DNA of 45,276 nucleotides from positions 1 to 45,276 of the forward strand of contig JAOZVH010000001.1 in assembly GCA_029938235.1 (NCBI GenBank). Reading direction: 5' to 3'. Position 1 is the first letter of the stretch. Each line of letters opens with the position of its first letter. The translations under genes were made by a program, and so were the position numbers. A model generated the notes under the pieces. It did no database searches, had not been told where the DNA came from, and worked only from the letters and a program-made list of their open reading frames with translations. Below, in pieces: positions 5,383 to 19,711 of the stretch. This stretch comes from Bacteroidales bacterium (GTDB lineage: Bacteria; Bacteroidota; Bacteroidia; Bacteroidales; 4572-128).

Positions 5383-6297
5383 ATGGTTTATAAGTTAAAA
5401 ATAATTTCAATATTGTTTTTTGTAATTTTGATTTTTTCATCAAGCGATTATAAGGCTTATCAAATTTACACAAAAACAGGTAAAAAAGTTGATTTCGAAG
5501 ATCTTATAAAATCGTCTGCAGAAAGCGATTTTGTTTTTTTTGGAGAATTGCATAATAATCCTATTTGTCATTGGTTGGAGCTTGAGCTGACAAAAAAACT
5601 GTACCAAAAGAAAAAAGATAAATTAATTCTTGGTGCAGAAATGTTTGAAACAGACGACCAATTAAAAATAGACGAATATTTTGCTGGTTTAATAAAGCAA
5701 AGAAATTTTGAAAGCGAAGCAAAACTTTGGCCAAACTATTCTACAGATTACAAGCCTTTTTTCGAGTTTGCAAAAGAAAAGAAATTAAAATTTGTTGCGA
5801 CAAATATCCCCAGACGTTATGCTTCTTATGTAGCAAAAAATGGCTTAAAAAGTTTGAAAAATCTAAGCAAAGAAGCGAAAGAATTTTTACCAGATTTGCC
5901 AATAAAAGCAAATATGGAATTAGAAAGCTACAAAAAAATGGAAAATATGAATATGGGAATGAAGAAGAAAAAAAGCAAAATGCCAAAAAAAATGATGATG
6001 AAAAAAAAGTCTCAAAAGATACACATCGCTGAAGCTCAGGCATCAAAAGATGCTTGTATGTCATATTTTATTTTGGAATATTGGAAAAAGAAAAAAACTT
6101 TTCTTCATTTTAATGGAACTTATCACTCTGATAATTACGAGGGAATAGTTTATTTTATAAAAGAAGAAAAACCAAAATCAAAAATCATTACAATAGCAAC
6201 GGTAATGGAAGAAAATATTAATGAATGGAATAAAGAAAATGAAAATTTGGCAGATTTTATTATCGTTGTTCCTAATAATATGACAACATCATATTAA
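5383..6297 (+). CDS. ChaN-like (haem-binding uptake, Tiki superfamily) periplasmic or lipoprotein-like protein
   Basis: 304-aa ORF with a signal peptide. The FVFFGELHNNPICHW segment resembles the GE-H signature of ChaN/Cofac_haem_bdg proteins. It also carries a Met/Lys-rich insert. Confidence 0.55.
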   Translation: MVYKLKIISILFFVILIFSSSDYKAYQIYTKTGKKVDFEDLIKSSAESDFVFFGELHNNPICHWLELELTKKLYQKKKDKLILGAEMFETDDQLKIDEYFAGLIKQRNFESEAKLWPNYSTDYKPFFEFAKEKKLKFVATNIPRRYASYVAKNGLKSLKNLSKEAKEFLPDLPIKANMELESYKKMENMNMGMKKKKSKMPKKMMMKKKSQKIHIAEAQASKDACMSYFILEYWKKKKTFLHFNGTYHSDNYEGIVYFIKEEKPKSKIITIATVMEENINEWNKENENLADFIIVVPNNMTTSY

Positions 6298-6320
6298 AAT
6301 TTTTTCAAAATCATTAAAAC

Positions 6321-6352
6321 AAACATTGGTGTTTTAAAAAAAACCAATGTTT
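6321..6352. terminator. Hairpin downstream of the ChaN-like gene (candidate terminator)
   Basis: Perfect 10-bp arms AAACATTGGT (6321-6330) and ACCAATGTTT (6343-6352) flank a 12-nt loop. The hairpin sits 24 nt after the stop at 6297. It is flanked by A/T runs but has no clean 3' U-tract on the + strand. Confidence 0.4.
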
Positions 6353-6354
6353 AA

Positions 6355-6470
6355 AAAAAAAATTTTTCAAAAATCGTCCAAAATTTTAATATTTTTAAAA
6401 TCAAAATAAAAAAAATTTTTTTCAAAAAACGCCGAAATTTTAACATTTTTAAATTTCAAAATAAAAAAAA
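6355..6470. repeat. Two units of the intergenic AT repeat family (CGTC orientation)
   Basis: TTTTTCAAAAATCGTCCAAAATTTTAATA has its core at 6375-6378. TTTTTTTCAAAAAACGCCGAAATTTTAACA has its core at 6430-6433. Confidence 0.8.
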
Positions 6471-6477
6471 ATCAAAA

Positions 6478-7134
6478 TTATTTACAATATATAAATTTAA
6501 CAGCTTGCAAATTTATATAAATTTGTTTTAAATTTTCAAAATCTAAAGCGTCAAATCCCTTAGAAACAAAATATTCATAATTATTATTCTCTGATTTTTC
6601 TAAAATAATAAATTGCCAAAATCTACCGATTACAAAACTTCCTATAATTTTTTTAGAATTATTCAAATTTATAGCAGCAAGCATCGCTGCAAGAACTTGA
6701 TTTTCTGGATTACCATAAGCGTTGAGCGACTTTTTATATTCTTGCAAAAAGAAAAATGGATTTTTAGGTTTTTCTATTCCTTTTGCAACCAAAAAGTCTG
6801 GTATTCCTTTGAATGTAAAGCCATTAATTTCGGCAATAATTTCATTTTGATACCAATCAAAAACATCTTTAAATTGAAAATTTACCCTAAGCAAAATAGG
6901 AGCAACAAATCGCATAGATAATTTTTGCTCATTATAATAAGATAAATATAACTCATTAACAGAAATGAGTTCTTTCAAAAAATCAATTTCGTTTTCAGTG
7001 ATTTTATAATCATAAGAAAACCATTTTTCAAATTTTTTATAATTAACTATTTTTTTAATATTAACAACTTTCATTAATTCTTCAAGTCCAGCGTTCCTAA
7101 AAGGAATAATCTTTTTATCATTATTTATTAACAT
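6478..7134 (-). CDS. PD-(D/E)xK-like nuclease-fold protein (HsdR-N-terminal-like), paralog of 15604..16383
   Basis: 218-aa ORF, roughly 55-60% identical by eye to the 259-aa ORF at 15604..16383. The conserved string NEQ...GIPDF-x18-LQEYKK...QVLAAMLAA fits an E...PD...(D/E)xK core. Confidence 0.55.
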   Translation of the reverse strand: MLINNDKKIIPFRNAGLEELMKVVNIKKIVNYKKFEKWFSYDYKITENEIDFLKELISVNELYLSYYNEQKLSMRFVAPILLRVNFQFKDVFDWYQNEIIAEINGFTFKGIPDFLVAKGIEKPKNPFFFLQEYKKSLNAYGNPENQVLAAMLAAINLNNSKKIIGSFVIGRFWQFIILEKSENNNYEYFVSKGFDALDFENLKQIYINLQAVKFIYCK

Positions 7135-7189
7135 ATCTATTTTTTTTTTAGATTTAAAAATTTACAATTTATAATATATATTTTTTTTT

Positions 7190-7525
7190 AATTAAAAAAA
7201 TTCGTAAAATTTTGCCATTTTATCAAAAAATTTTTTTTTTATAATTTAAAATCATTAAAAAATTGACGTTTTTTTCAAAAAAATTTTTTTGATAATTTAA
7301 AATCATTAAAAAATTGACGTTTTTTTCGAAAAAATTTTTTTTTATAATTTATAATCATTAAAAAATTGACGTTTTTTTCAAAAAAAAATTTTTTTGATAA
7401 TTTAAAATCATTAAAATTTGCCGATTTTGAAAAAAAATTTATTTTTAATAAAAAAAAATCATTAAAAAATTGACGTTTTTTTGAAAAAAATTTTTTTTTA
7501 ATAAATTAAAATCGTAAAAAAATTA
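7190..7525. repeat. Array of ~6 tandem units of the intergenic AT repeat family (GACG orientation)
   Basis: The unit is GATAATTTAAAATCATTAAAAAATTGACGTTTTTTTCAAAAAAATTTTTTT. G/C anchors lie at about 7214, 7265, 7316, 7368, 7419 and 7472, giving a 51-53 bp period. A perfect 18-bp palindrome TCAAAAAAATTTTTTTGA lies at 7275-7292. Confidence 0.9.
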
Positions 7526-7657
7526 TATTTTTATATTTTTCAAATTTTATATTTTTATAAAATAAATTTTATAATTTTGTGTTTTATATAAAATATATTT
7601 TTTTTGAAAAAAAAATTATAAATAATTTGTATTTTAATTTTATTAAATTTTAAATAA

Positions 7658-7897
7658 ATGGAATATTTATATCATGATATTACTGAAGTAATTGATAATA
7701 AAATCAATTTAATTCTACCAGATTATATAAATACAAAAAAAGTAGAAATTATTATTTTTCCTTTTGAAATTCCGAAAAATCTAAAAAATAAAGTAGATTA
7801 TAATAAATATTTTGGAGTTTCTGACATTGGTGAAAATTTGATTGATAAACACTTAAAAAATATAAGGAATGAATGGAAAAGAAAAATTCTTGATTGA
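7658..7897 (+). CDS. Putative type II antitoxin (VapB-like by position)
   Basis: 79-aa ORF immediately upstream of a PIN-domain gene and overlapping it by 29 nt, which is the classic TA layout. No specific family was recognised. Confidence 0.5.
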   Translation: MEYLYHDITEVIDNKINLILPDYINTKKVEIIIFPFEIPKNLKNKVDYNKYFGVSDIGENLIDKHLKNIRNEWKRKILD

Positions 7898-8266
7898 TAC
7901 CAATATTTTGATTTATTTTTTTGATGGGAAATTAACTCATAAACAAAAGGAAATAGTTATCAAAATTTTTCAAAAATCATTTAATATATCTGTAATATCA
8001 AAAATTGAATTTTTAGGTTTTAAAGATTATATTGATGATATAAAATATGAAAAAGCAAAAGATTTTTTGAATTACGCGAAAATAATACCATTTTCTGATA
8101 ATTTAATATATAAAATTATTGATATTAAACAAAAATATAACTTAAAGATGGAGATGCAATTATTGCTGCTACAGCATTAATTAATAATTTAACCGTTGTA
8201 ACTAGAAATCAAAAAGATTTTGAAAAAATTAAATCTATAAAAATTTTAAATCCATTCAATATTTAA
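7869..8266 (+). pseudogene. vapC: PIN-domain toxin (VapC-like) interrupted by a 1-nt frameshift
   Basis: Frame 0 gives MNGKEKFLIDTNILIYFFDG...ISKIEFLGF...KQKYNLK and then nonsense, ending at 8180. The next frame, open from 8141, gives LKDGDAIIAATALINNLTVVTRNQKDFEKIKSIKILNPFNI with its stop at 8264-8266. That sequence is the canonical PIN C-terminus. The shift lies in the A-run of TTAAAGAT (8142-8149). Confidence 0.7.
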
Positions 8267-8274
8267 AATTTTTT

Positions 8275-8365
8275 TATAAAATTAAATCATTAAAATTTTG
8301 CCATTTTTTGAAAAAAAAAATCATTAAAAAATTGACGTTTTTTTCAAAAAAAAAATTTTTAAAAT
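8275..8365. repeat. Two units of the intergenic AT repeat family (GACG orientation)
   Basis: AATCATTAAAATTTTGCCATTTTTTGAAAAAAAAAA is followed by TCATTAAAAAATTGACGTTTTTTTCAAAAAAAAAA. Confidence 0.8.
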
Positions 8366-8428
8366 ATAAAAAAATTTATATTTTAAAAATTAGAAAATTC
8401 TTAAAATCAAAAGAAATATATTTATTTA

Positions 8429-8833
8429 TTAAATAACAATTATTTCTGATTTAGTTTCGCCCTCTTTAATTGTTACTGCAGTATGTCCTAAAATAACATT
8501 TTCATTTAATTCGTCGAAAACAACAAAATAAAAAGTTTTTTGTGGTGTATTAATTATTTCTAAATCAAATGTTCGCAATTCAAAAGTTGCAATACCGTCA
8601 CTATTTGTAACAACTTCCCTTTTGCTAAAAAGAGGATCATTACCAAATGGACTTGATATTGATTTATCAAACATATAAACAATAATTCCTTTCTGCTTCT
8701 CTCCAGATTGATTTTTTATTATTATGGAAATTTTAGATGATACAATATCATCTTCTTCTTCATCTTTTTTACAACTTGCAAACACAATAAATAATGCCAA
8801 AATACTTATTAATAAAAATTTATTCTCTCTCAT
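8429..8833 (-). CDS. Small lipoprotein, possibly with a carboxypeptidase-regulatory/Ig-like beta-sandwich fold
   Basis: 134-aa ORF with a lipobox (LFIVFASC) followed by an acidic linker. An all-beta-like pattern is visible (VTNSDGIATFEL). It lies 35 nt downstream of the barrel gene on the same strand, so an operon is likely. Confidence 0.65.
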   Translation of the reverse strand: MRENKFLLISILALFIVFASCKKDEEEDDIVSSKISIIIKNQSGEKQKGIIVYMFDKSISSPFGNDPLFSKREVVTNSDGIATFELRTFDLEIINTPQKTFYFVVFDELNENVILGHTAVTIKEGETKSEIIVI

Positions 8834-8867
8834 AAAATTTAATTTTAAATTTATTTTTATAATAATT

Positions 8868-9638
8868 TTAAAGAATTATTCCAAAACTAATCTTTATTAT
8901 AGATACATTCCTTTTGAACCCATCAATTTCTCCATCAATATCAAGACCCAAAACATCACTTTCAATATTACCATCTATATCATGTTCTCCTAAGGCTAAA
9001 TAATTAGCAGCAATTATAAATTTGTCTTTCAAAATTATTCCACCGCCAATGAGAAAACCAAAAGATGCTGAAGGATCATATGTTACTGTAATTTCGGAAA
9101 CCGCATTTTCTATAATAAGATCTGTCATTTTTAGAAAATTTGCTGAAACACCAGCCTTTCCAAAAAATTTAACAGATTGATCAATATCAAATGTATAATT
9201 TAAACCAACTGTAACTGGAATATTAATATACATAGGAAATTCAATATCTGTATCAAATATTACCTCTTCCATTTCATCTTTAGCATCGTCACTAAAACTA
9301 TTAATAAACAAATCTCCTCCCAAAAACAAATTCAATCCAGAAGAATCTACCAATGGTGTCAGATATTCCCATCCTGCATTAAAACCTGTTCCAGATAATC
9401 CATCATCTTCTTCACTTATATCGTCAGCAGCAAAATCTCCAGTTGGAACTCCAGCACCAATATGTAATGAAAATTGGGCAAATAAACTATTGCTTATAAA
9501 AAGCAATATAAACAAAAAACTTGAAAAGTTTATAACTTTTTTCATACAATTTGATTTTTTATTATCAAATAATAAAGTCCCTTTATTAAAGTTTTTAATA
9601 TCAGACTCGTGATTTACTTTTTTAATATTTTTTTCCAT
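8868..9638 (-). CDS. Outer-membrane beta-barrel (porin-family-like) protein; likely true start at Met32 (nt 9545)
   Basis: The 256-aa ORF contains an internal signal peptide MKKVINFSSFLFILLFISNSLFAQ starting at nt 9545. Alternating hydrophobic beta-strand periodicity and Gly/aromatic-rich strands follow. The C-terminal strand is ISFGIIL. Confidence 0.7.
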   Translation of the reverse strand: MEKNIKKVNHESDIKNFNKGTLLFDNKKSNCMKKVINFSSFLFILLFISNSLFAQFSLHIGAGVPTGDFAADDISEEDDGLSGTGFNAGWEYLTPLVDSSGLNLFLGGDLFINSFSDDAKDEMEEVIFDTDIEFPMYINIPVTVGLNYTFDIDQSVKFFGKAGVSANFLKMTDLIIENAVSEITVTYDPSASFGFLIGGGIILKDKFIIAANYLALGEHDIDGNIESDVLGLDIDGEIDGFKRNVSIIKISFGIIL

Positions 9639-9673
9639 AAATTTATTTTAAAATAAAAAATTTTTTATAATAA

Positions 9674-9689
9674 TTCAATTTTAGTGCCA
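9674..9689 (-). promoter_or_regulatory. Sigma-54 (-24/-12)-type promoter candidate reading toward the barrel/lipoprotein operon
   Basis: The minus strand reads TGGCAC-TAAAA-TTGAA, against the consensus TGGCAC-N5-TTGCW. Spacing is correct, but the -12 element is GA rather than GC. It lies in the 122-bp divergent region next to a sigma-54 activator gene. A TGGCAC hexamer is conspicuous in DNA this AT-rich. Confidence 0.45.
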
Positions 9690-9711
9690 TTTTTATACGA
9701 CTGAATATCAG

Positions 9712-9726
9712 GCATTTAAAAAATGC
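9712..9726. promoter_or_regulatory. Palindrome GCATTT-AAA-AAATGC, candidate activator or operator site
   Basis: A perfect 6-bp-arm inverted repeat lies ~25 bp upstream of the -24 element relative to the minus-strand promoter. It is ~35-70 bp upstream of the activator gene start. It is one of very few G/C-containing motifs in this spacer. Confidence 0.3.
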
Positions 9727-9760
9727 TTCAAAACTTTATTGTGAAATAATTTTTCTTTAT

Positions 9761-11587
9761 ATGAAAAATTTTTCTTTTTTTGCAAAAAAAATAATAATGA
9801 AAAATAAAAAAGAAAATATTTATATTACATTTCATTACACCACCCACGGAATAGCATATATGAAACATATATTATCTGTTTTTTATTTGGAGAATTGTAA
9901 AGTTGAAGATGAGAAAATTTATGTCAATAATATTTCTCAGGATGCAATGAATGAAGTTTTTGATAAAAGAAAAAAAGGTTTTTTATTTGATAAAATATAT
10001 TACCTTACTTCTGACCAAAGTACTTTTGATAAGATTTCTCAGCGTCGTTTTAAGTATCGAAAAAATATCTTAATTGATGATTTTGTAATTAAAAAAAGAA
10101 TGAAAAAAATTTACACAGATGTAATAAAGCAAAAAAATGTTAAAATAATTGATGATAAAAACTTTGTGAAAAAAAAATATCCGAAGAAATGCGATTTATT
10201 TATGGAATTAATATGGAGAGATATGCAACATTATCCAATAAAAGAACAAATAATATGGTTTAAAAATTACAGTAATGCAAAAGAAAAATATTCTCATAAT
10301 TTTGAAGAAAAAAATTTAGGAATTAATGACCTAAGGGACACAGAAGAAATTTTTAATAAATTAAATAAGTTTATAAAAGAGATAAAAAATAAGCATAAAA
10401 ACGCAAATTTTATGGTAAATGTTTCTCTTGGAAGTAATGAAACACAGGTTGCTTGGCATATTTTAGCAGAGAATAATTTAATGCCAAAAAATTCTAATTT
10501 TATAAGCACTTATGATAAAAAAGGTATTTACACAGATACTCGTTTTAAAAATTTTCTTATAAAAAAACAGGCATTAAAATTATTTTCAAAAATATCTAAC
10601 AATTTGAGAATTTATGAAAATACAAAATCTCAAAGTCGTATATTAGCAAATATAAAAATGAAAACTTATATTAAACAGGGTTTTACTATACTTTTGATTG
10701 GAGAAAGAGGAACAGGAAAAACACAACTTGTGAACGAAGTAATAGATAAAAAAAATTATGCTGAGGCAAATTGTGCATCTTTTGACGACGATAATAAAAC
10801 TGAAGCAGATTTATTTGGATATGTAAAAGGAGCTTTTACCGGAGCAGATAAAAAAACAGACGGTTTGTTTCACAAAGCAAAAGATGGAATACTTTTCCTC
10901 GATGAAATACATCATCTTTCCAGAAGAGTTCAGGCAAAATTAATGACAGCATTATCAACAGATCGGAATAATAATTTTACCATAAGAAGATTAAAATCTA
11001 ATAAAATAGAAAAAATAAAATGTACAGTCATAATAGCAAGCAACAACACAATAAAAGAGTTGAGAGAAAAATTATATCCAGATTTATTCGATAGAATTAC
11101 ACAATTAATTATAGAATTTCCTCCTTTGCGAGAAACTCCCGGAGACAGAGAAAATGACTGGAAAAGTATATGGAAGCAATTAGGTTTTAAAAAACATTTT
11201 GAAGCGCCAGATGAAAAAGAATTATTAAATTGGCTAAAAAGTTTAGATTTATATGGGAATTTTAGAGATTTGCAAAAAATTGCAATTTATTATCATACTT
11301 TTATGCAATTTTCAAAGGAAGAAAAAAAAGAATTAAATTATAATTCTCCTTTTAAGTTTACCCAAGCAGAATTTTCAAAATATTTCTCAAAGAAAAAGAA
11401 AGAAAAAAATCCATTATTAGATATAGAAAATTTTTCAATTGAAGAAATTAAAAAAAACTTTTTCAAAAAGTTTGCTGAAAAATTATTTTCAAAATTTGGA
11501 ACTGCAAAAAAGATTTCGGATTTTTATGAAACAAAAGGTGAAAGTATTACAACGAGAACGCTTTATAATTGGAGGAATAAAAAATAA
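9761..11587 (+). CDS. RtcR-like sigma-54-dependent transcriptional activator (CARF-like N-terminal domain + AAA+ + C-terminal HTH)
   Basis: The central AAA+ module has Walker A GERGTGKT (10700-10723), GAFTGA (10829-10846), Walker B ILFLDEIH and a GNFRDL sensor motif. The N-terminal segment NVSLGSNETQVAWHILAENNLMP resembles the RtcR N-domain signature (TGTH..Q..W.LLAE...LP, as I recall it for enterobacterial RtcR). The C-terminal end is HTH-like (ISDFYETKGESITTRTLYNWRNK). A likelier start is Met13 at 9797. Confidence 0.75.
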   Translation: MKNFSFFAKKIIMKNKKENIYITFHYTTHGIAYMKHILSVFYLENCKVEDEKIYVNNISQDAMNEVFDKRKKGFLFDKIYYLTSDQSTFDKISQRRFKYRKNILIDDFVIKKRMKKIYTDVIKQKNVKIIDDKNFVKKKYPKKCDLFMELIWRDMQHYPIKEQIIWFKNYSNAKEKYSHNFEEKNLGINDLRDTEEIFNKLNKFIKEIKNKHKNANFMVNVSLGSNETQVAWHILAENNLMPKNSNFISTYDKKGIYTDTRFKNFLIKKQALKLFSKISNNLRIYENTKSQSRILANIKMKTYIKQGFTILLIGERGTGKTQLVNEVIDKKNYAEANCASFDDDNKTEADLFGYVKGAFTGADKKTDGLFHKAKDGILFLDEIHHLSRRVQAKLMTALSTDRNNNFTIRRLKSNKIEKIKCTVIIASNNTIKELREKLYPDLFDRITQLIIEFPPLRETPGDRENDWKSIWKQLGFKKHFEAPDEKELLNWLKSLDLYGNFRDLQKIAIYYHTFMQFSKEEKKELNYNSPFKFTQAEFSKYFSKKKKEKNPLLDIENFSIEEIKKNFFKKFAEKLFSKFGTAKKISDFYETKGESITTRTLYNWRNKK

Positions 11588-11598
11588 TTTTGAAAAAA

Positions 11599-11638
11599 TT
11601 TTTATAAAGATTCCAAAGTTTTGGAATCTTTATAAAAA
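11599..11638. terminator. Bidirectional hairpin terminator between convergent genes
   Basis: Perfect 19-bp arms (11599-11617 and 11620-11638) centre on ATTCCAAAGTTTTGGAAT, with A/T runs on both sides. The hairpin lies between the stop at 11587 (+) and the stop at 11643 (-). Confidence 0.6.
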
Positions 11639-11642
11639 AATT

Positions 11643-12959
11643 TTATGATAATCTAAATGTTATCGGAATAGACATTTTTATTTTAACTTTTTCTCCGTTC
11701 TTTTCTCCAGCTTTCCATTTTGAAAATTTAATTACTCTAATTGCTTCTTTTTTAAACCCTGGGGAAACTTCAACTCTACCTTTAAACTTATTTTCTTTTT
11801 CATTAAAAGCAAGAGTTGCTACAATTTCTACATCTATTATACTTCCATCTTTGTCTATCACAAAAGAAACAAATACTTTTTGCTGTAATCCTTCTGCTTT
11901 CTCTTTTTCAGGAAATTTAATGTTTTTTGAAAGAAAAACATTAAAAGCATTATTATCACCTATAAACTTCGGCATCACTTCTGCAGTATTCAAAACAACT
12001 TCTTCTTTAATGTTATTTTTATTATCTCCCTCACTGATAATTTTTGAAGTTTTTGCTTTTTTTGTTTCATTATTTATAACTTCTCCCTCGTCTGAGCATG
12101 CGGAAAATATAAATAAAACAATTAAAACTGGCAAAGCAAATAAAATTTTGAATTTGCTTTTTTCTGAGGACTTAATTTTTGTCATCATAACTAAACGATT
12201 TTTTATTGTTAATTGATTAAAATAATTTGCGATATTGTAATTTGAATAAAAAACTTCTTCCAAAATTAAACGCTTATAAGAAACAGAATTTTTTGTTTTC
12301 TTCAAAACACCGTCATCTGCAAGATATTCATGAACTTCGGAAATGGATTTTTTATACAAATAAATTAATGGATTGAACCAAAAAATAATTTTAAGAACTT
12401 CTAAAAATAATAAATCTAAAGAATGAAATTGTTTAATATGAACTTTTTCATGTAAAACAATTTTGCTTTTTTTGATGTCAGAAAAAATATCTTTAGAAAT
12501 AAATAAATAATTGAAAAATGAAAATGAGGAACTTTTTTTATCTAATAAAACAAAATTTATATTTTTTAATTTTATGACCTTATTTTTATAAATAATTTTT
12601 TTTATAAAAAATATTTCTTTCATTAAAAAGAAAAAAAATATAAAAGAAATCAAAAAATAAATTAAAAATATAATATCAAATTCATTAAAAAAAGCCTCGT
12701 TTTGAGTAAAATTTTTTTTTGAAATATCTATTTCATTTAAATTGAAATTAAAAATATTTTCATTTTCAATGAAAGTTTCAAAATTTAAAAATGGAATTAC
12801 TAGGGAAAATAAGACAGAAAAAATTAAATAAAAACGGTTTAATTTAAAATTTGTTTCGTTTTTTAAAAACAAAAAATAAATCAAATACATAAAAAACAAA
12901 TTTAAAAATAATTTGTATTGATAAATGAAAAAGCCGTTTTCTAAAATAAAATTAAACAT
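11643..12959 (-). CDS. BlaR1/MecR1-like M56 peptidase signal transducer with C-terminal TonB_C-like domain (copy 1)
   Basis: 438-aa ORF with a multi-TM N-terminus and an HExxH motif (HEKVH, nt 12438-12452). The C-terminus is TonB_C-like (MPKFIGDNNAFNVFLSKNIKFPEKEKAEGLQQKVFVSFVIDKDGSI). It overlaps the upstream blaI-like gene by 8 nt. Confidence 0.8.
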   Translation of the reverse strand: MFNFILENGFFIYQYKLFLNLFFMYLIYFLFLKNETNFKLNRFYLIFSVLFSLVIPFLNFETFIENENIFNFNLNEIDISKKNFTQNEAFFNEFDIIFLIYFLISFIFFFFLMKEIFFIKKIIYKNKVIKLKNINFVLLDKKSSSFSFFNYLFISKDIFSDIKKSKIVLHEKVHIKQFHSLDLLFLEVLKIIFWFNPLIYLYKKSISEVHEYLADDGVLKKTKNSVSYKRLILEEVFYSNYNIANYFNQLTIKNRLVMMTKIKSSEKSKFKILFALPVLIVLFIFSACSDEGEVINNETKKAKTSKIISEGDNKNNIKEEVVLNTAEVMPKFIGDNNAFNVFLSKNIKFPEKEKAEGLQQKVFVSFVIDKDGSIIDVEIVATLAFNEKENKFKGRVEVSPGFKKEAIRVIKFSKWKAGEKNGEKVKIKMSIPITFRLS

Positions 12960-13368
12960 TTTTATTGTTTTTTTTTATTTTAATTTCTTTTTCTACCAGT
13001 TTCATTAATTCTTCTAATTCTTTGACATTCAAATCATTTTCCCTAGAAAAAAACGAAAGTAATTGTCCGAAAGAATTGTCAAAATAATTTCCTATAAATT
13101 TTGAAAGAAAATTTTTTGTATAATCTTTTTTTTCAATTAACGGAAAATATTCATGTGTTTTTCCGTAAACTTTATGAGAAACAAAATTTTTCCTTTCCAA
13201 AATTCTTACTATGGTAGAAACTGTATTATATGCTGGTTTAGGCATTTTAAAATGAGAAATTATGTCTTTTACAAATCCTTTTTTTATCTTCCAAAGGATC
13301 TTCATAATTTGTTCTTCAGCTTTTGTTAAGTCTTTTTTAATCATTTTTTTTAATTTAAAATTATGCAA
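12952..13368 (-). CDS. BlaI/MecI/CopY-family winged-helix transcriptional repressor (copy 1)
   Basis: 138-aa ORF. LTKAEEQIMKILW...YNTVSTIVRILERKNFV is typical of the Penicillinase_R family. It sits upstream of an M56 partner and is translationally coupled to it. Confidence 0.85.
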   Translation of the reverse strand: MHNFKLKKMIKKDLTKAEEQIMKILWKIKKGFVKDIISHFKMPKPAYNTVSTIVRILERKNFVSHKVYGKTHEYFPLIEKKDYTKNFLSKFIGNYFDNSFGQLLSFFSRENDLNVKELEELMKLVEKEIKIKKNNKNV

Positions 13369-13381
13369 ATATAAGTCTTTT

Positions 13382-13397
13382 TTAGTTATGCAACTAA
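13382..13397. promoter_or_regulatory. Candidate BlaI-like operator palindrome TTAGTT-ATGC-AACTAA
   Basis: A perfect 6-bp-arm inverted repeat lies 14 bp upstream of the blaI-like start codon at 13368 on the minus strand. A paralogous site lies at 15226-15241. Confidence 0.4.
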
Positions 13398-13404
13398 TTT
13401 TATA

Positions 13405-13537
13405 GTTAATAATTTACGTTTTTTTTTAAAAAAAATTGTAAAGTGTTGATTGTCAAGTGAAAAAATTTAATTATTAAAATTTTGAACGAATTAAAAAAAA
13501 AAATTTTTTAATTTGAAATTTAAAAATATTAAAATTT
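13405..13537. repeat. About 2 units of the intergenic AT repeat family (GACG orientation, degenerate)
   Basis: TAATTTACGTTTTTTTTTAAAAAAAATTG and ATTAAAATTTTGAACGAATTAAAAAAAAAAATTTTTT are both present. Confidence 0.65.
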
Positions 13538-14803
13538 TTATAATCTAAATTTAACACAAAATCCTGTTATAACATTTACGTTTTCCCCATGGTTTCTTGC
13601 AGGGGTAAATTTTAAATTTTTAGTTAATCTAATAGCTTCATTTTTAAATGCCTGAGAAACTTCTACAACACTATCTATTTGATTTTCATTATCTAAATGA
13701 AAAGCTCTAATAACTTTCACATTTTGAACACTACCGTCTTTCCAAACTATAAAACTAAGAAGTACATCGGCTTGTAAACCAGCTTCTTTTTCTTTCTTTG
13801 GATATCTGATGTATTTTTTAAGTTGATCACTAACATAAATAAAACCATCATTTTCCATTTCTTCTGAATACCTTGGTTGTTCTACTTCATCAAGCTGATA
13901 AATTATAGTATTTTTATCTATTATTTTATCGTTTTCTGAGCATGCAGAAAATATAAATAAAACAATTAAAACTGGCAAAGCAAATAAAATTTTGAATTTG
14001 CTTTTTTCTGAGGACTTAATTTTTGTCATCATAACTAAACGATTTTTTATTGTTAATTGATTAAAATAATTTGCGATATTGTAATTTGAATAAAAAACTT
14101 CTTCCAAAATTAAACGCTTATAAGAAACAGAATTTTTTGTTTTCTTCAAAACACCGTCATCTGCAAGATATTCATGAACTTCGGAAATGGATTTTTTATA
14201 CAAATAAATTAATGGATTGAACCAAAAAATAATTTTAAGAACTTCTAAAAATAATAAATCTAAAGAATGAAATTGTTTAATATGAACTTTTTCATGTAAA
14301 ACAATTTTGCTTTTTTTGATGTCAGAAAAAATATCTTTAGAAATAAATAAATAATTGAAAAATGAAAATGAGGAACTTTTTTTATCTAATAAAACAAAAT
14401 TTATATTTTTTAATTTTATGACCTTATTTTTATAAATAATTTTTTTTATAAAAAATATTTCTTTCATTAAAAAGAAAAAAAATATAAAAGAAATCAAAAA
14501 ATAAATTAAAAATATAATATCAAATTCATTAAAAAAAGCCTCGTTTTGAGTAAAATTTTTTTTTGAAATATCTATTTCATTTAAATTGAAATTAAAAATA
14601 TTTTCATTTTCAATGAAAGTTTCAAAATTTAAAAATGGAATTACTAGGGAAAATAAGACAGAAAAAATTAAATAAAAACGGTTTAATTTAAAATTTGTTT
14701 CGTTTTTTAAAAACAAAAAATAAATCAAATACATAAAAAACAAATTTAAAAATAATTTGTATTGATAAATGAAAAAGCCGTTTTCTAAAATAAAATTAAA
14801 CAT
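13538..14803 (-). CDS. BlaR1/MecR1-like M56 peptidase signal transducer with a divergent TonB_C-like C-terminal domain (copy 2)
   Basis: 421-aa ORF whose first ~288 aa are identical to copy 1, including HEKVH at nt 14282-14296. The C-terminal ~130 aa are different but still TonB_C-like (YPKKEKEAGLQADVLLSFIVWKDGSVQNVKVI). Confidence 0.8.
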   Translation of the reverse strand: MFNFILENGFFIYQYKLFLNLFFMYLIYFLFLKNETNFKLNRFYLIFSVLFSLVIPFLNFETFIENENIFNFNLNEIDISKKNFTQNEAFFNEFDIIFLIYFLISFIFFFFLMKEIFFIKKIIYKNKVIKLKNINFVLLDKKSSSFSFFNYLFISKDIFSDIKKSKIVLHEKVHIKQFHSLDLLFLEVLKIIFWFNPLIYLYKKSISEVHEYLADDGVLKKTKNSVSYKRLILEEVFYSNYNIANYFNQLTIKNRLVMMTKIKSSEKSKFKILFALPVLIVLFIFSACSENDKIIDKNTIIYQLDEVEQPRYSEEMENDGFIYVSDQLKKYIRYPKKEKEAGLQADVLLSFIVWKDGSVQNVKVIRAFHLDNENQIDSVVEVSQAFKNEAIRLTKNLKFTPARNHGENVNVITGFCVKFRL

Positions 14804-15212
14804 TTTTATTGTTTTTTTTTATTTTAATTTCTTTTTCTACCAGTTTCATTAATTCTTCTAATTCTTTGACATTCAAATCATTTTCCCTAGAAAAAAACGA
14901 AAGTAATTGTCCGAAAGAATTGTCAAAATAATTTCCTATAAATTTTGAAAGAAAATTTTTTGTATAATCTTTTTTTTCAATTAACGGAAAATATTCATGT
15001 GTTTTTCCGTAAACTTTATGAGAAACAAAATTTTTCCTTTCCAAAATTCTTACTATGGTAGAAACTGTATTATATGCTGGTTTAGGCATTTTAAAATGAG
15101 AAATTATGTCTTTTACAAATCCTTTTTTTATCTTCCAAAGGATCTTCATAATTTGTTCTTCAGCTTTTGTTAAGTCTTTTTTAATCATTTTTTTTAATTT
15201 AAAATTATGCAA
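14796..15212 (-). CDS. BlaI/MecI/CopY-family repressor (copy 2, identical protein)
   Basis: The 138-aa ORF is identical to 12952..13368. Confidence 0.85.
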   Translation of the reverse strand: MHNFKLKKMIKKDLTKAEEQIMKILWKIKKGFVKDIISHFKMPKPAYNTVSTIVRILERKNFVSHKVYGKTHEYFPLIEKKDYTKNFLSKFIGNYFDNSFGQLLSFFSRENDLNVKELEELMKLVEKEIKIKKNNKNV

Positions 15213-15225
15213 ATATAAGTCTTTT

Positions 15226-15241
15226 TTAGTTATATAACTAA
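15226..15241. promoter_or_regulatory. Candidate operator palindrome TTAGTT-ATAT-AACTAA (paralog of 13382-13397)
   Basis: The arms and position match copy 1. Only the 4-bp centre differs, ATAT versus ATGC. Confidence 0.4.
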
Positions 15242-15254
15242 TTTTGTAGTTAAA

Positions 15255-15600
15255 AAATTTAGTTTTTTTTGAAAAAAATTGTAATCTATTGATTATCAGG
15301 TAAAAAAATTTTTTATTAAAATTTTGGACGAATTTGAAAAAAATTTTTTTTTGATTTTGATTTTAAAATTATTAAAATTTTGAACGAATTTAAAAAAAAA
15401 AATTTTTTTTAAAATTTAAAAATTATTAAAATTTTGGACGAATTTGAAAAAAAATTTTTTTTTGATATAAAAAACATTAAAATTTTGGACGAATTTTGAA
15501 AAAAAATTTTTTTATTTTGAAATTAAAAATATTAAAAAAATTGACGTTTTTTCAAAAATTTTTTTTTATTTAAAAAAATTGACATTTTTTTGAAAAAAAT
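15255..15600. repeat. Array of ~7 units of the intergenic AT repeat family (GACG orientation)
   Basis: ATTAAAATTTTGGACGAATTTGAAAAAAATTTTTTTT-type units have anchors at 15327, 15383, 15437, 15488, 15543 and 15581. Confidence 0.9.
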
Positions 15601-15603
15601 ATT

Positions 15604-16383
15604 ATGAAAAAAGATTTTAAAAAATCATTAGTTTTAAATGATGATGTATTAAAAAGGTTAATGAAAATTATAAGCACAAAATCAGATAAAGAAAAATTTA
15701 ATTCTTGGTTGGATGATGAGTATAAATTATTAACTGAATCTGGAAAAATTTTAAATTTTCGTTCAGCGACATTAGAGAAATTGATGGAAATTGTAAATAT
15801 TGAACAAGCAGATGAAGAAAATAAATTTTTAAAATGGTTCTCATATAAATATGAATTATCAAAAGAAGAAAAAATTTTTTTGAAAAATTTAATAAAAAAA
15901 AATAAATTTTATCTTAACAGTTATAATGAACAAACTTTAATAGCAAAATTTATAGCAATTCTTCTTTATAAAGTAAACTTCAGTAATAAATATATAAAAG
16001 ATTGGTATGAATATGCTATAAATTGCAAATTAAATGGCTGGACATTAGTTGGTTATCCTGATTTTTTTGTTGCAACCGGAATAAATGAGCCGAAAAAGCC
16101 TTATTTTTTTCTTCAAGAATATAAAAAAGGAGTAAATTTCAATGGTAATCCTGAATATCAAGTGCTTGCTGCAATGCTTGCCGCAATTACTTTAAATAAT
16201 ACAAATACTATAAAAGGTGGTTATATAATTGGCGCTTATTGGAAGTTTATGATACTCAACAAATTAGAAAATGGAAATTATGAATATTTTGTCTCGAAAG
16301 GTTTTGATTGTTTGGATTTCTATGAATTGAAAAAAATTTATATTTATTTGCAAGCAGTAAAAATGCTATATTGTAAAAAATAA
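15604..16383 (+). CDS. PD-(D/E)xK-like nuclease-fold protein (HsdR-N-terminal-like), paralog of 6478..7134
   Basis: 259-aa ORF. The PD dipeptide lies at nt 16057-16062, and the E and K of QEYKK lie at 16117-16125. NEQ lies upstream and QVLAAMLAA downstream. Repeat arrays flank the gene on both sides. Confidence 0.55.
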   Translation: MKKDFKKSLVLNDDVLKRLMKIISTKSDKEKFNSWLDDEYKLLTESGKILNFRSATLEKLMEIVNIEQADEENKFLKWFSYKYELSKEEKIFLKNLIKKNKFYLNSYNEQTLIAKFIAILLYKVNFSNKYIKDWYEYAINCKLNGWTLVGYPDFFVATGINEPKKPYFFLQEYKKGVNFNGNPEYQVLAAMLAAITLNNTNTIKGGYIIGAYWKFMILNKLENGNYEYFVSKGFDCLDFYELKKIYIYLQAVKMLYCKK

Positions 16384-16394
16384 TAATATATTTT

Positions 16395-16940
16395 GATTTA
16401 AAAAATATTAAAATTTTCACGAATTTGAAAAAAATTTTTATTTTGGAATTAAAAAATCTTAAAATTTTCACGTTTTTTGAAAAAAATTTTTTTATTTTCA
16501 AATTAAAAAATCTTAAAATTTTCACGTTTTTTGAAAAAAATTTTTTTATTTTGAAATTAAAAAATCTTAAAATTTTCACGAATTTGAAAAAAATTTTTTT
16601 ATTTTGAAATTAAAAAACATTAAAATTTTGGACGAATTTGAAAAAAATTTTTTTTATTTTTAAATTAAAAGATGTTGAAATTTTGGACGTTTTTTGAAAA
16701 AAATTTTTTTTTATTTGAAATTAAAAAATATTAAAATTTTGGACGATTTTTGAAAAAAATTTTTTATTTAAAATTGAAAAATATTAAAATTTTGGACGAT
16801 TTTTGAAAAAAAAATTTTTTTTATTTTAAAATTAAAAAATATTAAAATTTTGGGCGTTTTTTGAAAAAATTTTTTTTATTTAAAATTAAAATGTTAAATT
16901 TTAATTATTTTTTGAAAAAAAAATTTTTTTATTTATTAAA
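16395..16940. repeat. Largest array, ~10-11 tandem units of the intergenic AT repeat family (GACG orientation)
   Basis: Anchors are CACG at 16418, 16469, 16523 and 16577, GACG at 16631, 16686, 16742 and 16795, and GGCG at 16853. The period is 51-58 bp. There are two sub-blocks, TCTTAAAATTTTCACG units followed by ATTAAAATTTTGGACG units. Confidence 0.92.
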
Positions 16941-16984
16941 AATAAATTTTTTATTAATTTTAAGAAATTTTTTTTTATATTTTT

Positions 16985-19711
16985 ATGAAATTCAAATTTA
17001 CAATAACAAAAAAATTAGGAATTGGTTTTATAATATTATTAATAGCTGTTGTTATTAATGCTTATTTAATTTATATAACAGCAGAAGAAAATCGTGAAAC
17101 CAGCATTATGATAACACAAATCTATATGCCTTCTGTTTCTTATCTTCACGATTTATCATATATTATTAATAATTCTAAATTTTTAATTAAAAGCTGGGTG
17201 CTTGTTGATAGAAAAGAAGATACACCTGAAAAAAAACTTTTAAAAAATTTACATAATATAAAATATGTAAATTTAGAAAAAAAAATATCAAATAAATTCG
17301 TTTTCTTATGGAAAGAAAAAGATAAAAAAATATTTTTCAAAACAAAAATATTGATAGAGAAACTCTTTAAAAAACACAAAATTATAATGAGTCAACTAAA
17401 AGATTTTGAAAGCTATGAAAACCCACTTGTATTTTTTGAAATTAACCCACAAGTAGAAACTAATGGAGAAATTATAGAACTGACAGATGAAATTTTGAAA
17501 AAATTAAATATTTTAATAGAAAATCAAGAAAAAATTGTTGATAAATTAAATAGTCAAATTATTAAAGATTTTTCGTGGTTTGAAAGGCTGGTTGTTTATA
17601 TGGGGAATATAATGGGTATTATTGTTCTTTTGACAGGAATTGTTACAATAAGAGCAATAAAAATTCCACTGGAGTTTATAAAAAATATTGTTCTTGATAT
17701 GGGGAAAGGCATACTTCCAAAAAAAGAAATAAAAGTAAGCAATGACGAAATTGGAGAAATGAGTATCGCTTTAAATATACTTGTAAAAAATTTAAAAAAA
17801 ACCTCAGAATTTTCCGAAGAAATAGGAAAAGGAAATTTTAAAATAGAGTTTACCTCTCTTAGTAAAAATGATTTACTAGGAAATTCTTTAATAAAAATGA
17901 AAAATGAACTTTATAATGCTTCTAATGAAGAATCATTAAGAAAAAAAGAAAACGAAGAAAGACGATGGACAACTAACGGTATAGCAATGTTTAGTGATAT
18001 TTTACAAAAAAATGATGATAATATTAATAATTTTTCTTTCGATATAATTAAAAATCTAATAAAATATGTTGAAGTAAATCAAGGAGGATTATTTATTATT
18101 AATGATGAAGATAAAAATGATGTTTTTTTAGAACTAATGGCAAGCTATGCTTATGGTAGAAAAAAAATATTAGAAAAACGAATAGAAATAGGAGAAGGAC
18201 TTCTCGGAAGATGTATGCAAGAGCAAGAAATAATTTATATCACAGATCTGCCAAAAACATACATTAATATTGGTTCTGGACTTGGAGATTCTAAGCCTCG
18301 TTCTTTACTTATTGCTCCTTTAAAAGTAAATGAAAAAATTTATGGAGTTATAGAAATTGCGTCTTTTTTCCATTTGAAAAATTATAAAATAGAATTTGTA
18401 GAAAAAATAGGTGAAAATATTGCATCAGCAATTGCTACTCTGAAAACAAATTTAAATACTGTCAGATTATTAAAAGATGCAAAATTTAAAGAGGAAGAAC
18501 TTGCCATAAGAGATGAAGAAATGCGTCAAAATTTAGAAGAATTACAAGTTACCAAAGAAAGTCTTGCAAAACGAGAAAAAGAACAACAAAGAGCAATTAA
18601 AATTTTAAACATAGAAAATAAAAAACGCATAGGAGAAATTATGGAAAAAGATTTAGAAATGAGAGGACAATTAAACGCTGTAGATAATACCACAGCGGTT
18701 GTTGAGTTTGATATGAAAGGAAAAATTAAAAGAGTAAATAAATTATTTGAGGAATTAATTGGATATTCGGATGAAGAAATGGTTGGTAATAGCTACAATT
18801 TATTTATTTCTGAAGAGAAAGAAGAAATAAAGTTTCATAAAAAATTGTGGGACGATTTGAATGAAGGAGAAATATATTCCGGAGAATTTGTTAATATAGA
18901 TAAATTTGGAAAGGAAATATGGTTAAAATCAACTTATGTACCTGTTTTAGATAAAAATAAAAAACCTTATAAAATCATTGCGTCTTCTTTAGATATAACA
19001 TCTGATAAATTAACTTTCTTAGATTTAAAAGGAAAAATCAAGGGGATAGAACGTTCAAATGCAATTATTGAAATGGATATTAATGGTAAAATTATATCTA
19101 TTAATGAGTTGTTTGCTGATTTATTAGAATATCCAATGAAAGAAATTATCGGAATGAATCACGATAATATCGTAAATAAAGAATATGTAACAACAAAATT
19201 TTATGCTGATTTTTGGAATAAACTAAAAAAGGGAGAATTCATAAAAGGTGCATTTAAAAGAATTAAAAAAAATGGTGATGCAATATGGGTTAGTGCATCT
19301 TATAATCCAATTTTTAATATTAGGAATAATATTTATAAAATAATTATTTTCGCTCACGATATTACAAAACAAAGAAGAACATTTAAAAATTTAGAAATTA
19401 ATAATAAAAAATTATTAGAGCAAGAAGATAAATTCCAACAAAAAATAGAAAAAATAAGAACTTTAAATGAAAAATTAAAAGTTCAAGTTTCCGAAGAAAA
19501 TAAGAAAAATATTAAATTAAAAGAAAAAGAAGAACAGAATTTTAATTCTATGAAAGAAATGAAAATTTTAAATGATAAATTAAAAATTAAAGTTTCCGAA
19601 GAAAACAGAAAAAACGATGAATTAAATGAAAAAATGGAGCAAATTTCCGCTTCTATGGAAGAAATGAAATCTTTATATGAACAGATTGAAAAAAATAGAG
19701 AAAAAAATTAG
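16985..19711 (+). CDS. Membrane sensor: 4HB-like periplasmic module, TM, HAMP, GAF, PAS, PAS and a C-terminal coiled coil; no recognisable catalytic output
   Basis: 908-aa ORF with an N-terminal TM (GIGFIILLIAVVINAYLIY) and a second TM followed by HAMP (IKIPLEF...SNDEIGEMSIALN). GAF is visible (NQGGLFIINDED...GEGLLGRCMQEQE...YGVIEIASF). Two PAS-like blocks are present (AVVEFDMKGKIKRVNKLFEELIGYS and AIIEMDINGKIISINELFADLLEY). A duplicated coiled-coil tail ends in EQISASMEEMKSL. Confidence 0.75.
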   Translation: MKFKFTITKKLGIGFIILLIAVVINAYLIYITAEENRETSIMITQIYMPSVSYLHDLSYIINNSKFLIKSWVLVDRKEDTPEKKLLKNLHNIKYVNLEKKISNKFVFLWKEKDKKIFFKTKILIEKLFKKHKIIMSQLKDFESYENPLVFFEINPQVETNGEIIELTDEILKKLNILIENQEKIVDKLNSQIIKDFSWFERLVVYMGNIMGIIVLLTGIVTIRAIKIPLEFIKNIVLDMGKGILPKKEIKVSNDEIGEMSIALNILVKNLKKTSEFSEEIGKGNFKIEFTSLSKNDLLGNSLIKMKNELYNASNEESLRKKENEERRWTTNGIAMFSDILQKNDDNINNFSFDIIKNLIKYVEVNQGGLFIINDEDKNDVFLELMASYAYGRKKILEKRIEIGEGLLGRCMQEQEIIYITDLPKTYINIGSGLGDSKPRSLLIAPLKVNEKIYGVIEIASFFHLKNYKIEFVEKIGENIASAIATLKTNLNTVRLLKDAKFKEEELAIRDEEMRQNLEELQVTKESLAKREKEQQRAIKILNIENKKRIGEIMEKDLEMRGQLNAVDNTTAVVEFDMKGKIKRVNKLFEELIGYSDEEMVGNSYNLFISEEKEEIKFHKKLWDDLNEGEIYSGEFVNIDKFGKEIWLKSTYVPVLDKNKKPYKIIASSLDITSDKLTFLDLKGKIKGIERSNAIIEMDINGKIISINELFADLLEYPMKEIIGMNHDNIVNKEYVTTKFYADFWNKLKKGEFIKGAFKRIKKNGDAIWVSASYNPIFNIRNNIYKIIIFAHDITKQRRTFKNLEINNKKLLEQEDKFQQKIEKIRTLNEKLKVQVSEENKKNIKLKEKEEQNFNSMKEMKILNDKLKIKVSEENRKNDELNEKMEQISASMEEMKSLYEQIEKNREKN

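Follow-up and report, generated by a model that had tools for sequence, protein, structure and literature searches.

REP-associated tyrosine transposases (RAYTs) are HUH/Y1 (IS200/IS605 TnpA-like) transposases that sit among copies of repetitive extragenic palindromic (REP) elements, which are hairpin palindromes. In Neisseria, the intergenic mosaic elements (dRS3/RS arrays) and 'minimal mobile elements' are thought to be recombination substrates for cassette exchange. This study concerns two genes for PD-(D/E)xK-like proteins that are set in arrays of a ~54-nt intergenic repeat on contig JAOZVH010000001.1 of a Bacteroidales bacterium (assembly GCA_029938235.1). The window that was analysed is the entire contig, 45,276 bp with a GC content of ~22%. 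The data presented here show that the link between the nuclease gene and the arrays is real, but lineage-specific. In the reading favoured here, which is given about an even chance of being correct, the two open reading frames (ORFs) are diverged members of a large family of stand-alone accessory (defence-type) endonuclease genes that lie in arrays bordering accessory modules, and the nuclease is probably cargo of the arrays and not the maker of the repeats.

The two genes and the arrays in and around the interval between them were as follows, with arrays called using Tandem Repeats Finder (TRF) and an nhmmer model of the ~54-nt unit.

6352..6471, minus strand: array of 2 units (TRF period 55, 2.2 copies; nhmmer units at 6354 and 6401/6409), directly downstream of paralog 1 and sense to the gene.
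6478..7134, minus strand: PD-(D/E)xK paralog 1, short form, 218 amino acids (aa), with the E...PD-x18-ExK...Q motif intact and a PADLOC PD_DExK match at E 5.5e-10.
7197..7524, plus strand: array of 6 units of a TTGACG variant (TRF period 51-52, 5.9 copies; nhmmer 6), between paralog 1 and a VapB-like ORF.
8285..8367, plus strand: small degenerate array of 2 weak units (nhmmer E 0.006-0.017; TRF 8268-8367), downstream of a VapC-like ORF.
15313..15597, plus strand: array of 5 units (TRF period 54-56, 4.2-4.8 copies; nhmmer 5), its end 7 nt upstream of the paralog 2 start codon.
15604..16383, plus strand: PD-(D/E)xK paralog 2, long form, 259 aa, with a PADLOC PD_DExK match at E 7.2e-7 and an AlphaFold2 model.
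16389..16946, plus strand: array of 9-10 units, the largest of the window (TRF period 54, 10.1 copies, score 665; nhmmer 9), its start 6 nt downstream of the paralog 2 stop codon.

The initial annotation of this contig, made from the sequence alone, had described the two genes as outward-facing paralogs with about 55-60% identity and a nuclease fold, and these descriptions were borne out. The genes are divergently placed (6478-7134 on the minus strand, 15604-16383 on the plus strand), and BLASTP aligned their products without gaps over 217 aa with 57% identity and 73% positives (E 3e-85). The cores that had been quoted, GIPDF...LQEYKK and GYPDF...LQEYKK, were both found, with exactly 18 residues from D to E. 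Paralog 2 differs in having two extra helices, about 45 aa in all, at its N-terminus. The motif, the AlphaFold2 model, the Foldseek matches and the PADLOC profile all place the proteins in the PD-(D/E)xK fold, and both are assigned on these grounds to the PD-(D/E)xK (RecB/Cas4-like) superfamily with an intact motif. E109 and K174 were invariant in an alignment of 46 family sequences, in which D153, E172 and Q186 were conserved in at least 90%; in a more diverse alignment of 48 sequences E109, D153, K174 and Q186 were still at least 90% conserved, but E172 was not. The pattern D..(E/Q)xK..Q was kept in 70 of 70 full-length copies examined. The AlphaFold2 model of paralog 2 (pLDDT 89.4, pTM 0.79) contains a helix at 109-124, strands at 146-150, 154-158 and 166-173, a helix at 183-198 and further strands, and so has the alpha-beta-beta-beta-alpha-beta core of the superfamily. 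The conserved residues fall on helix 109-124, the second and third core strands and the next helix, which is the canonical layout. Nuclease activity of the family is predicted from this architecture, and its members are most likely Mg2+-dependent DNA endonucleases.

The top Foldseek matches in the PDB were PD-(D/E)xK-like subunits of mitoribosomes (TM-score about 0.5). These were followed by the best enzymatic matches, all from the RecB/Cas4/lambda-exonuclease branch: Cas4 (8d3l), LHK-Exo (3syy), lambda exonuclease (3slp), AdnAB and Exo5, with low TM-scores of 0.2-0.3. A search of viral models (BFVD) returned Cas4, RecB and YqaJ-type nucleases. The order of catalytic residues is shared with this branch (E, D and ExK, with Q on the helix that follows). 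However, the four-Cys Fe-S cluster of Cas4/RecB-like proteins and the Tyr of their QxxxY motif are missing; no conserved Cys quartet was found in two family alignments, and Q186 is followed by VLAAML (QVLAAML). The only library profile with a significant match was PADLOC PD_DExK, at E 7e-7 to 9e-13 across the family including its distant members and over about 110-135 of 146 positions. Its source is the PD-DExK accessory cluster of type III CRISPR systems (Shah et al. 2018, cluster 45, Marme_0670; PADLOC PDLC01472), which is likewise an uncharacterised 'possible nuclease'. That cluster is found near some type III CRISPR loci, whereas neither the window nor any locus examined here has cas genes or a CRISPR array. 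In addition, the match covers the catalytic core only, and the N-terminal helical region with its invariant Trp is specific to the present family.

Other libraries did not name the family. Pfam and NCBIfam gave no match above threshold for either window protein, with only sub-threshold matches to Pfam PDDEXK_1, PDDEXK_9 and PDDEXK_12; profile searches of PDB sequences returned noise only (CdiI at E 0.4; tuberin), and PHROGs had no match to the family. Rpn/YhgA-like, Mrr-type type IV and Shedu nucleases resemble the present proteins in being single-gene nucleases that lack a cognate methyltransferase and occur, often as paralogs, in variable regions or within defence islands. They differ in profile, since Transposase_31, Mrr_cat and Shedu had no match in Pfam, NCBIfam or PADLOC, and the present proteins are smaller (about 215 aa) with another N-terminal region. 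Type II restriction-modification would call for a neighbouring cognate methyltransferase, and in 78 family loci such a neighbour was not conserved and occurred only sporadically (for example at locus L078).

The family is new and unnamed, although its superfamily is well known, and current understanding is not overturned by it. A search of 5.8 billion proteins returned 77 relatives, none of them named and all entered as 'hypothetical protein'. A profile search of 1.84 billion representatives yielded 1,176 clusters (50% identity) at E<=1e-3 and 658 at E<=1e-10, and members were nearly all single-domain proteins of about 215 aa. More than 574 family loci were found in GTDB representative genomes, many of which hold several. 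The distribution over phyla is patchy and takes in Bacteroidales, Cytophagales, Raineyaceae, Saprospiraceae, Chloroflexota, Thioploca, Marithrix, Achromatium, Electrothrix, Thiovulum and other Campylobacterales. The expansion into many old paralogs concerns giant sulfur bacteria, cable bacteria, Cytophagales and mat-dwelling Bacteroidales. With ~1,200 clusters, an intact PD-(D/E)xK motif and no Pfam or NCBIfam model to cover it, the family offers a concrete target for biochemical and defence screens.

Copies of the family reach 15-20 old, diversified paralogs per genome. Median identities between paralogs within a genome were 44-66%, and identity exceeded 90% in only 2 of 345 pairs. Because these paralogs are old and all keep their catalytic residues, the family does not appear to be an active transposase or to supply the ends of a composite element. 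Judged from sequence comparison, it behaves as a horizontally exchanged, diversifying accessory gene, predicted to be enzymatically active, and not as an actively transposing element. When the flanks of paralogs were compared in seven multi-copy genomes, no shared terminal sequences or terminal inverted repeats were found, only short matches near start codons that are probably coding or ribosome-binding-site sequence. No conserved partner gene was detected either; the best neighbour cluster, a polysaccharide-locus ABC transporter, was present in 6 of 78 loci. A role in defence or addiction is probable, and it is suggested by context alone: no fixed partner, patchy spread, old paralogs and a position beside toxin-antitoxin and restriction-modification genes.

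Same-strand tandem clusters of 2-5 family copies are frequent in other genomes. Head-to-tail clusters of 4-5 diverged paralogs with near-zero spacers were seen at L055:7275-10621, L036:215-2874, L009:3-2395 and L002:1428-4002, and paralog pairs from the same locus had median identities of 56-75%. A second family of ~200 aa lies within a few genes of PD-(D/E)xK genes at 5 loci (L045:8335-8940, L004:6992-7600, L052:4253-4885, L058:3192-3833 and L067:5541-6149). By eye it has an N-terminal 'F..L..LE..FG' followed by E...D...EAK...Q and a W.F..LE strand, and it is possibly a distant sister of the PD-(D/E)xK family.

The repeat unit of the window is ~54 nt long, with the consensus AAAATATTAAAATTTTGGACGATTTTTGAAAAAAATTTTTTTAT. 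Arrays on both sides of each paralog, as the initial annotation had reported, were confirmed by both TRF and nhmmer (2, 6, 5 and 9 units), and these four lie 6-60 nt from the start or stop codons. They also include several of the largest in the window, as had been claimed: by unit count the arrays that touch the paralogs rank first, second and tied third, and other spacers hold 0-5 units. The simplest account of this arrangement is coincidence, in which repeats fill most spacers and are therefore near any gene, and a caveat to that effect had been attached to the original observation. Many array-bearing spacers are indeed unconnected with the family. However, the numbers leave this account hardly any credibility. 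In a small sample of seven loci, which total about 150 kb and come from three to four genomes with the repeat, arrays were longer beside family genes, with a median of 5 units in the family-adjacent spacers (n=16) and 0 in the others (n=87; Mann-Whitney p=5e-7). The enrichment held when the window was excluded (p=1.3e-4), in the window alone (4 adjacent and 26 other spacers; Mann-Whitney p=0.0004) and in convergent and divergent spacers only, which are never intra-operon (p=0.0017). The largest array of the locus touched a family gene at 6 of the 7 loci.

This association does not extend to the family as a whole. Among the fetched loci the 54-nt repeat was found only in the window organism (including its other assemblies), in Bacteroidetes bacterium 4572_128 and in the low-GC metagenome-assembled genome (MAG) JAOZMS01. 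Of the 78 family loci from GTDB representative genomes it was present only at L075 and L078, both of which belong to MAG 4572_128; locus L116 also carries it. At the other 72 loci the family-adjacent spacers had a median of 66 bp compared with 68 bp for the background, and tandem arrays were almost never present. On present evidence, adjacency to arrays is a lineage-specific genomic habit and not a new mechanism.

The same distribution bears on the proposal, made in the initial annotation by analogy with RAYTs, that the PD-(D/E)xK proteins create the 54-nt repeats, spread them or maintain them. The likeness to the REP/RAYT system is that of a gene embedded among copies of an abundant intergenic repeat, and the adjacency of family genes to the longest arrays, which abut the ORFs at 6-60 nt, is strong and replicated. 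However, the gene and repeat families do not co-occur over genomes: more than 570 loci of other taxa are without such a repeat, so that the family persists in hundreds of genomes that lack it, with the short and nearly array-free spacers described above. An outcome of this kind had been named in the initial annotation as one that would refute the proposal. Conversely, of the 26 arrays with 2 or more units, 14 adjoin no family gene. The units are tandem and not dispersed palindromes, and no hairpin was detected when one and two units were folded as single-stranded DNA on both strands, which folded no better than shuffled sequences (z +0.5 to +1.5). The repeat is not REP-like because its unit forms no hairpin. 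It is also established that RAYTs are HUH/Y1 enzymes, with another fold and chemistry than PD-(D/E)xK proteins, and Y1_Tnp was absent among the Pfam matches of the window proteins. Finally, slippage can expand tandem arrays without a dedicated enzyme. The RAYT-like proposal is therefore considered very unlikely.

Array orientation was unrelated to the orientation of neighbouring genes (15/26 and 13/26), which counts further against a dedicated maker. On the same result, the idea that the arrays act as promoters or terminators was rejected.

What the arrays border besides family genes points to the reading favoured here. Arrays also border VapBC, RelE, an MmeI-type restriction-modification gene, methyltransferases and an AAA_21 ATPase, and the methyltransferase of L078 is flanked by 4 and 4 units. 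Spacers beside non-family accessory genes were enriched over the rest as well (p=0.012). One island illustrates this.

L075:395-11231 (4572_128 scaffold_11920): UPF0175 antitoxin-like gene, AAA_21/AAA_15 ATPase, VapBC, split MmeI-type IIG restriction-modification gene, RelE and PD-(D/E)xK gene.

Between each module of this island and the next there are 2-10 repeat units. Because the repeats also border other accessory genes, the nuclease gene is probably cargo. Two different genomes combine a family gene with a PIN toxin-antitoxin module and an MmeI-type restriction-modification gene, at L075:4268-10636 and L119:5333-10798. L119 (GC 0.29) is without the 54-nt repeat, and the family gene of the window likewise adjoins a PIN module.

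Taken together, the data show a ~54-nt intergenic tandem repeat that piles up at the borders of accessory modules in a Bacteroidales lineage of ~22% GC, most of all around nuclease genes. In the model suggested here, arrays would grow and shrink through slippage and unequal recombination, and because they are blocks of dispersed homology they would act as sites where accessory genes are inserted, duplicated and lost. The ~9-kb interval of the window would then be a run of array-punctuated accessory genes between two old paralogs and not a composite element. Recombination at the arrays as the cause of the gene-array association is inferred from copy-number variation and context. Independent assemblies of a single locus vary in unit number: L088, L089 and L090 have 9, 7 and 9 units at about 9011-9408, and L082 and L084 have 5 and 4 at about 6112-6326. 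Several contigs of the window organism end within arrays. The copy-number differences reflect either real population polymorphism or assembly collapse.

The Neisseria dRS3/RS arrays are a parallel to this model, as both are intergenic arrays beside accessory cassettes such as restriction-modification genes. They are unrelated in sequence, unit size and phylum, and in the present case recombination at the arrays is deduced from copy-number variation and context. If the arrays do serve as recombination substrates, they would be the equivalent in Bacteroidota of the cassette sites that repeats bound in Neisseria. In one lineage, accessory modules are bordered by a simple tandem repeat, a pattern that is unexplained and testable, and the arrays break metagenomic assemblies right at accessory genes.

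Several observations weigh against treating the nuclease gene simply as one defence-type accessory gene among others. The family was not found on PLSDB plasmids, INPHARED phages (tblastn) or viral contigs of IMG/VR (pattern scan), and defence genes do not usually reach 15-20 paralogs in one genome. One caveat is that the sample is small and every comparison locus was fetched because a family gene was present. Enrichment at family genes was somewhat above that at other accessory genes (p=0.04), and a downstream array was present at 8 of 8 family gene clusters of repeat-bearing genomes, in sense orientation at 7 of 8. The protein P0002, which is the closest homologue of paralog 2 (73% identity), is encoded in another genomic context yet is array-embedded in the same orientation. 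This hints at a more specific link, with the gene and its arrays moving together or the gene homing into arrays.

In the homing version, the protein would cut the repeat unit, and repair from a gene-bearing array would copy the gene into empty arrays, so that the arrays would be both target and homology arms. Besides the downstream array at every cluster and the repeated embedding of the P0002 gene, arrays lie on both sides at 5 of the 8 family clusters of repeat-bearing genomes and both flanking arrays have the same orientation at four of them (paralog 2, L075, L078 and L116). When the paralog 2 ORF is removed, the junction reads by eye as approximately one continuous unit, in low-complexity sequence. 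Homing is nevertheless judged unlikely, because the paralogs are old and no empty/occupied polymorphism was seen among the assemblies compared: copies within a genome share 57-68% identity here, with no near-identical recent copies. Furthermore, the arrays flanking paralog 1 are oppositely oriented, the upstream side of clusters L082, L085 and L088 carries a single unit or no array at all, genomes free of arrays are ones in which the family thrives, and other accessory modules are array-flanked as well. A broader proposal goes further. In this AT-rich lineage the 54-nt arrays would form an integrase-free cassette system in which accessory genes, such as nuclease, toxin-antitoxin and restriction-modification genes, move from one array to another by homologous recombination, and the PD-(D/E)xK paralogs would cut or nick the unit, starting both the exchange and their own homing. 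This is considered quite unlikely, and the reading of the family as accessory cargo in border arrays is retained.

The initial annotation had also raised the possibility that the paralogs mark the ends of a composite island, and this depends on what lies between and around them. The remaining features of the window were as follows.

Low-coordinate flank: TonB-dependent receptor, class I Glu/Gln-tRNA synthetase and ChaN-like protein, ordinary chromosomal genes.
7658..8180, plus strand: VapBC-like toxin-antitoxin module, a 79-aa ORF overlapping a 103-aa PIN ORF (Pfam PIN, E 6e-5, 24.1 bits).
8429..9638, minus strand: 134-aa lipoprotein-like ORF and 256-aa outer-membrane beta-barrel protein (Pfam OMP_b-brl, E 1.1e-5).
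9761..11587, plus strand: RtcR-like sigma-54 AAA+ activator with a CARF-type N-terminus (Pfam Sigma54_activat, E 5e-31; RtcR, E 3.4e-5).
11643..15212, minus strand: two tandem pairs of blaR1-like (M56+TonB_C) and blaI-like genes (Pfam).
High-coordinate flank: PAS/GAF sensor, glycosyltransferases, MlaEF, MiaA, SppA and LpxK, ordinary chromosomal genes.

The content of the interval was thus as originally described, with Pfam identifying the PIN ORF (which has an overlapping upstream ORF), the outer-membrane protein, the RtcR-like sigma-54 regulator and two BlaR1/BlaI pairs. A composite island or transposon, in which the inverted paralogs bound a mobile 9-kb accessory segment, would fit this accessory-looking cargo and the outward-facing inverted copies, each with an outer array; the paralogs and their outer arrays together make a 263-nt inverted repeat with 73% DNA identity. 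However, a composite transposon has near-identical ends that encode a transposase, and arms that are 57% identical as proteins are far too diverged for functional composite ends. No integrase or transposase (Pfam) and no tRNA (tRNA scan) were found in the window, and the GC content of the ~9-kb block equals that of its surroundings. Elsewhere the family forms the same-strand tandem clusters described above, nearby pairs show no consistent bracket geometry, and paralog flanks have no conserved terminal sequences. A composite island is thus regarded as extremely improbable. In a metagenome scan the relatives of the ChaN-like protein did not exceed 52% identity, apart from 58% over a single partial fragment, and none was syntenic, and exact-protein look-ups of both flanking genes led to other assemblies with the same arrangement or to contigs broken inside arrays.

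Some further observations concern the arrays themselves. Each unit (for example in 16389-16946) carries AAAATTTT and AAAAAAATTTTTTT tracts at spacings of ~23 and 31 nt, which is nearly in helical phase; the 54-nt period amounts to about 5 helical turns. AnTn phasing of this kind is expected to give intrinsically curved DNA, and curvature of the arrays may matter for binding of nucleoid proteins or for silencing around accessory genes. ORFs of 60-107 aa that encode repetitive peptides lie wholly inside the largest array (16256-16579 on the minus strand, 16425-16607 and 16861-17058 on the plus strand); these ORFs are almost certainly not genes, though naive ORF finders would call them. An Rfam scan of the window gave no match.

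Minor observations were also made on the genes between the paralogs. The VapBC-like module is array-bordered on both sides (7197-7524 and 8285-8367). Its PIN (VapC-like) ORF at 7869-8180 is short (103 aa), matches profile positions 2-90 of 120 and scores 24.1 bits against a Pfam cut-off of 23.6, and it may be C-terminally truncated. The RtcR-like regulator at 9761-11587 is divergent from the genes for the outer-membrane beta-barrel and lipoprotein-like proteins, and no rtcA or rtcB lies close by in the window. The segment 12091-13538 is duplicated as 13935-15381 with 98% identity over 1449 bp (blastn), a recent tandem duplication. The duplicated segment comprises blaI and the N-terminal two-thirds of blaR1, and the two BlaR1 copies are distinguished only by the TonB_C-type domain at the C-terminus. 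The right end of that segment falls on a lone repeat unit (13470-13520), and the counterpart of this unit is the first unit of the array at 15313-15597.

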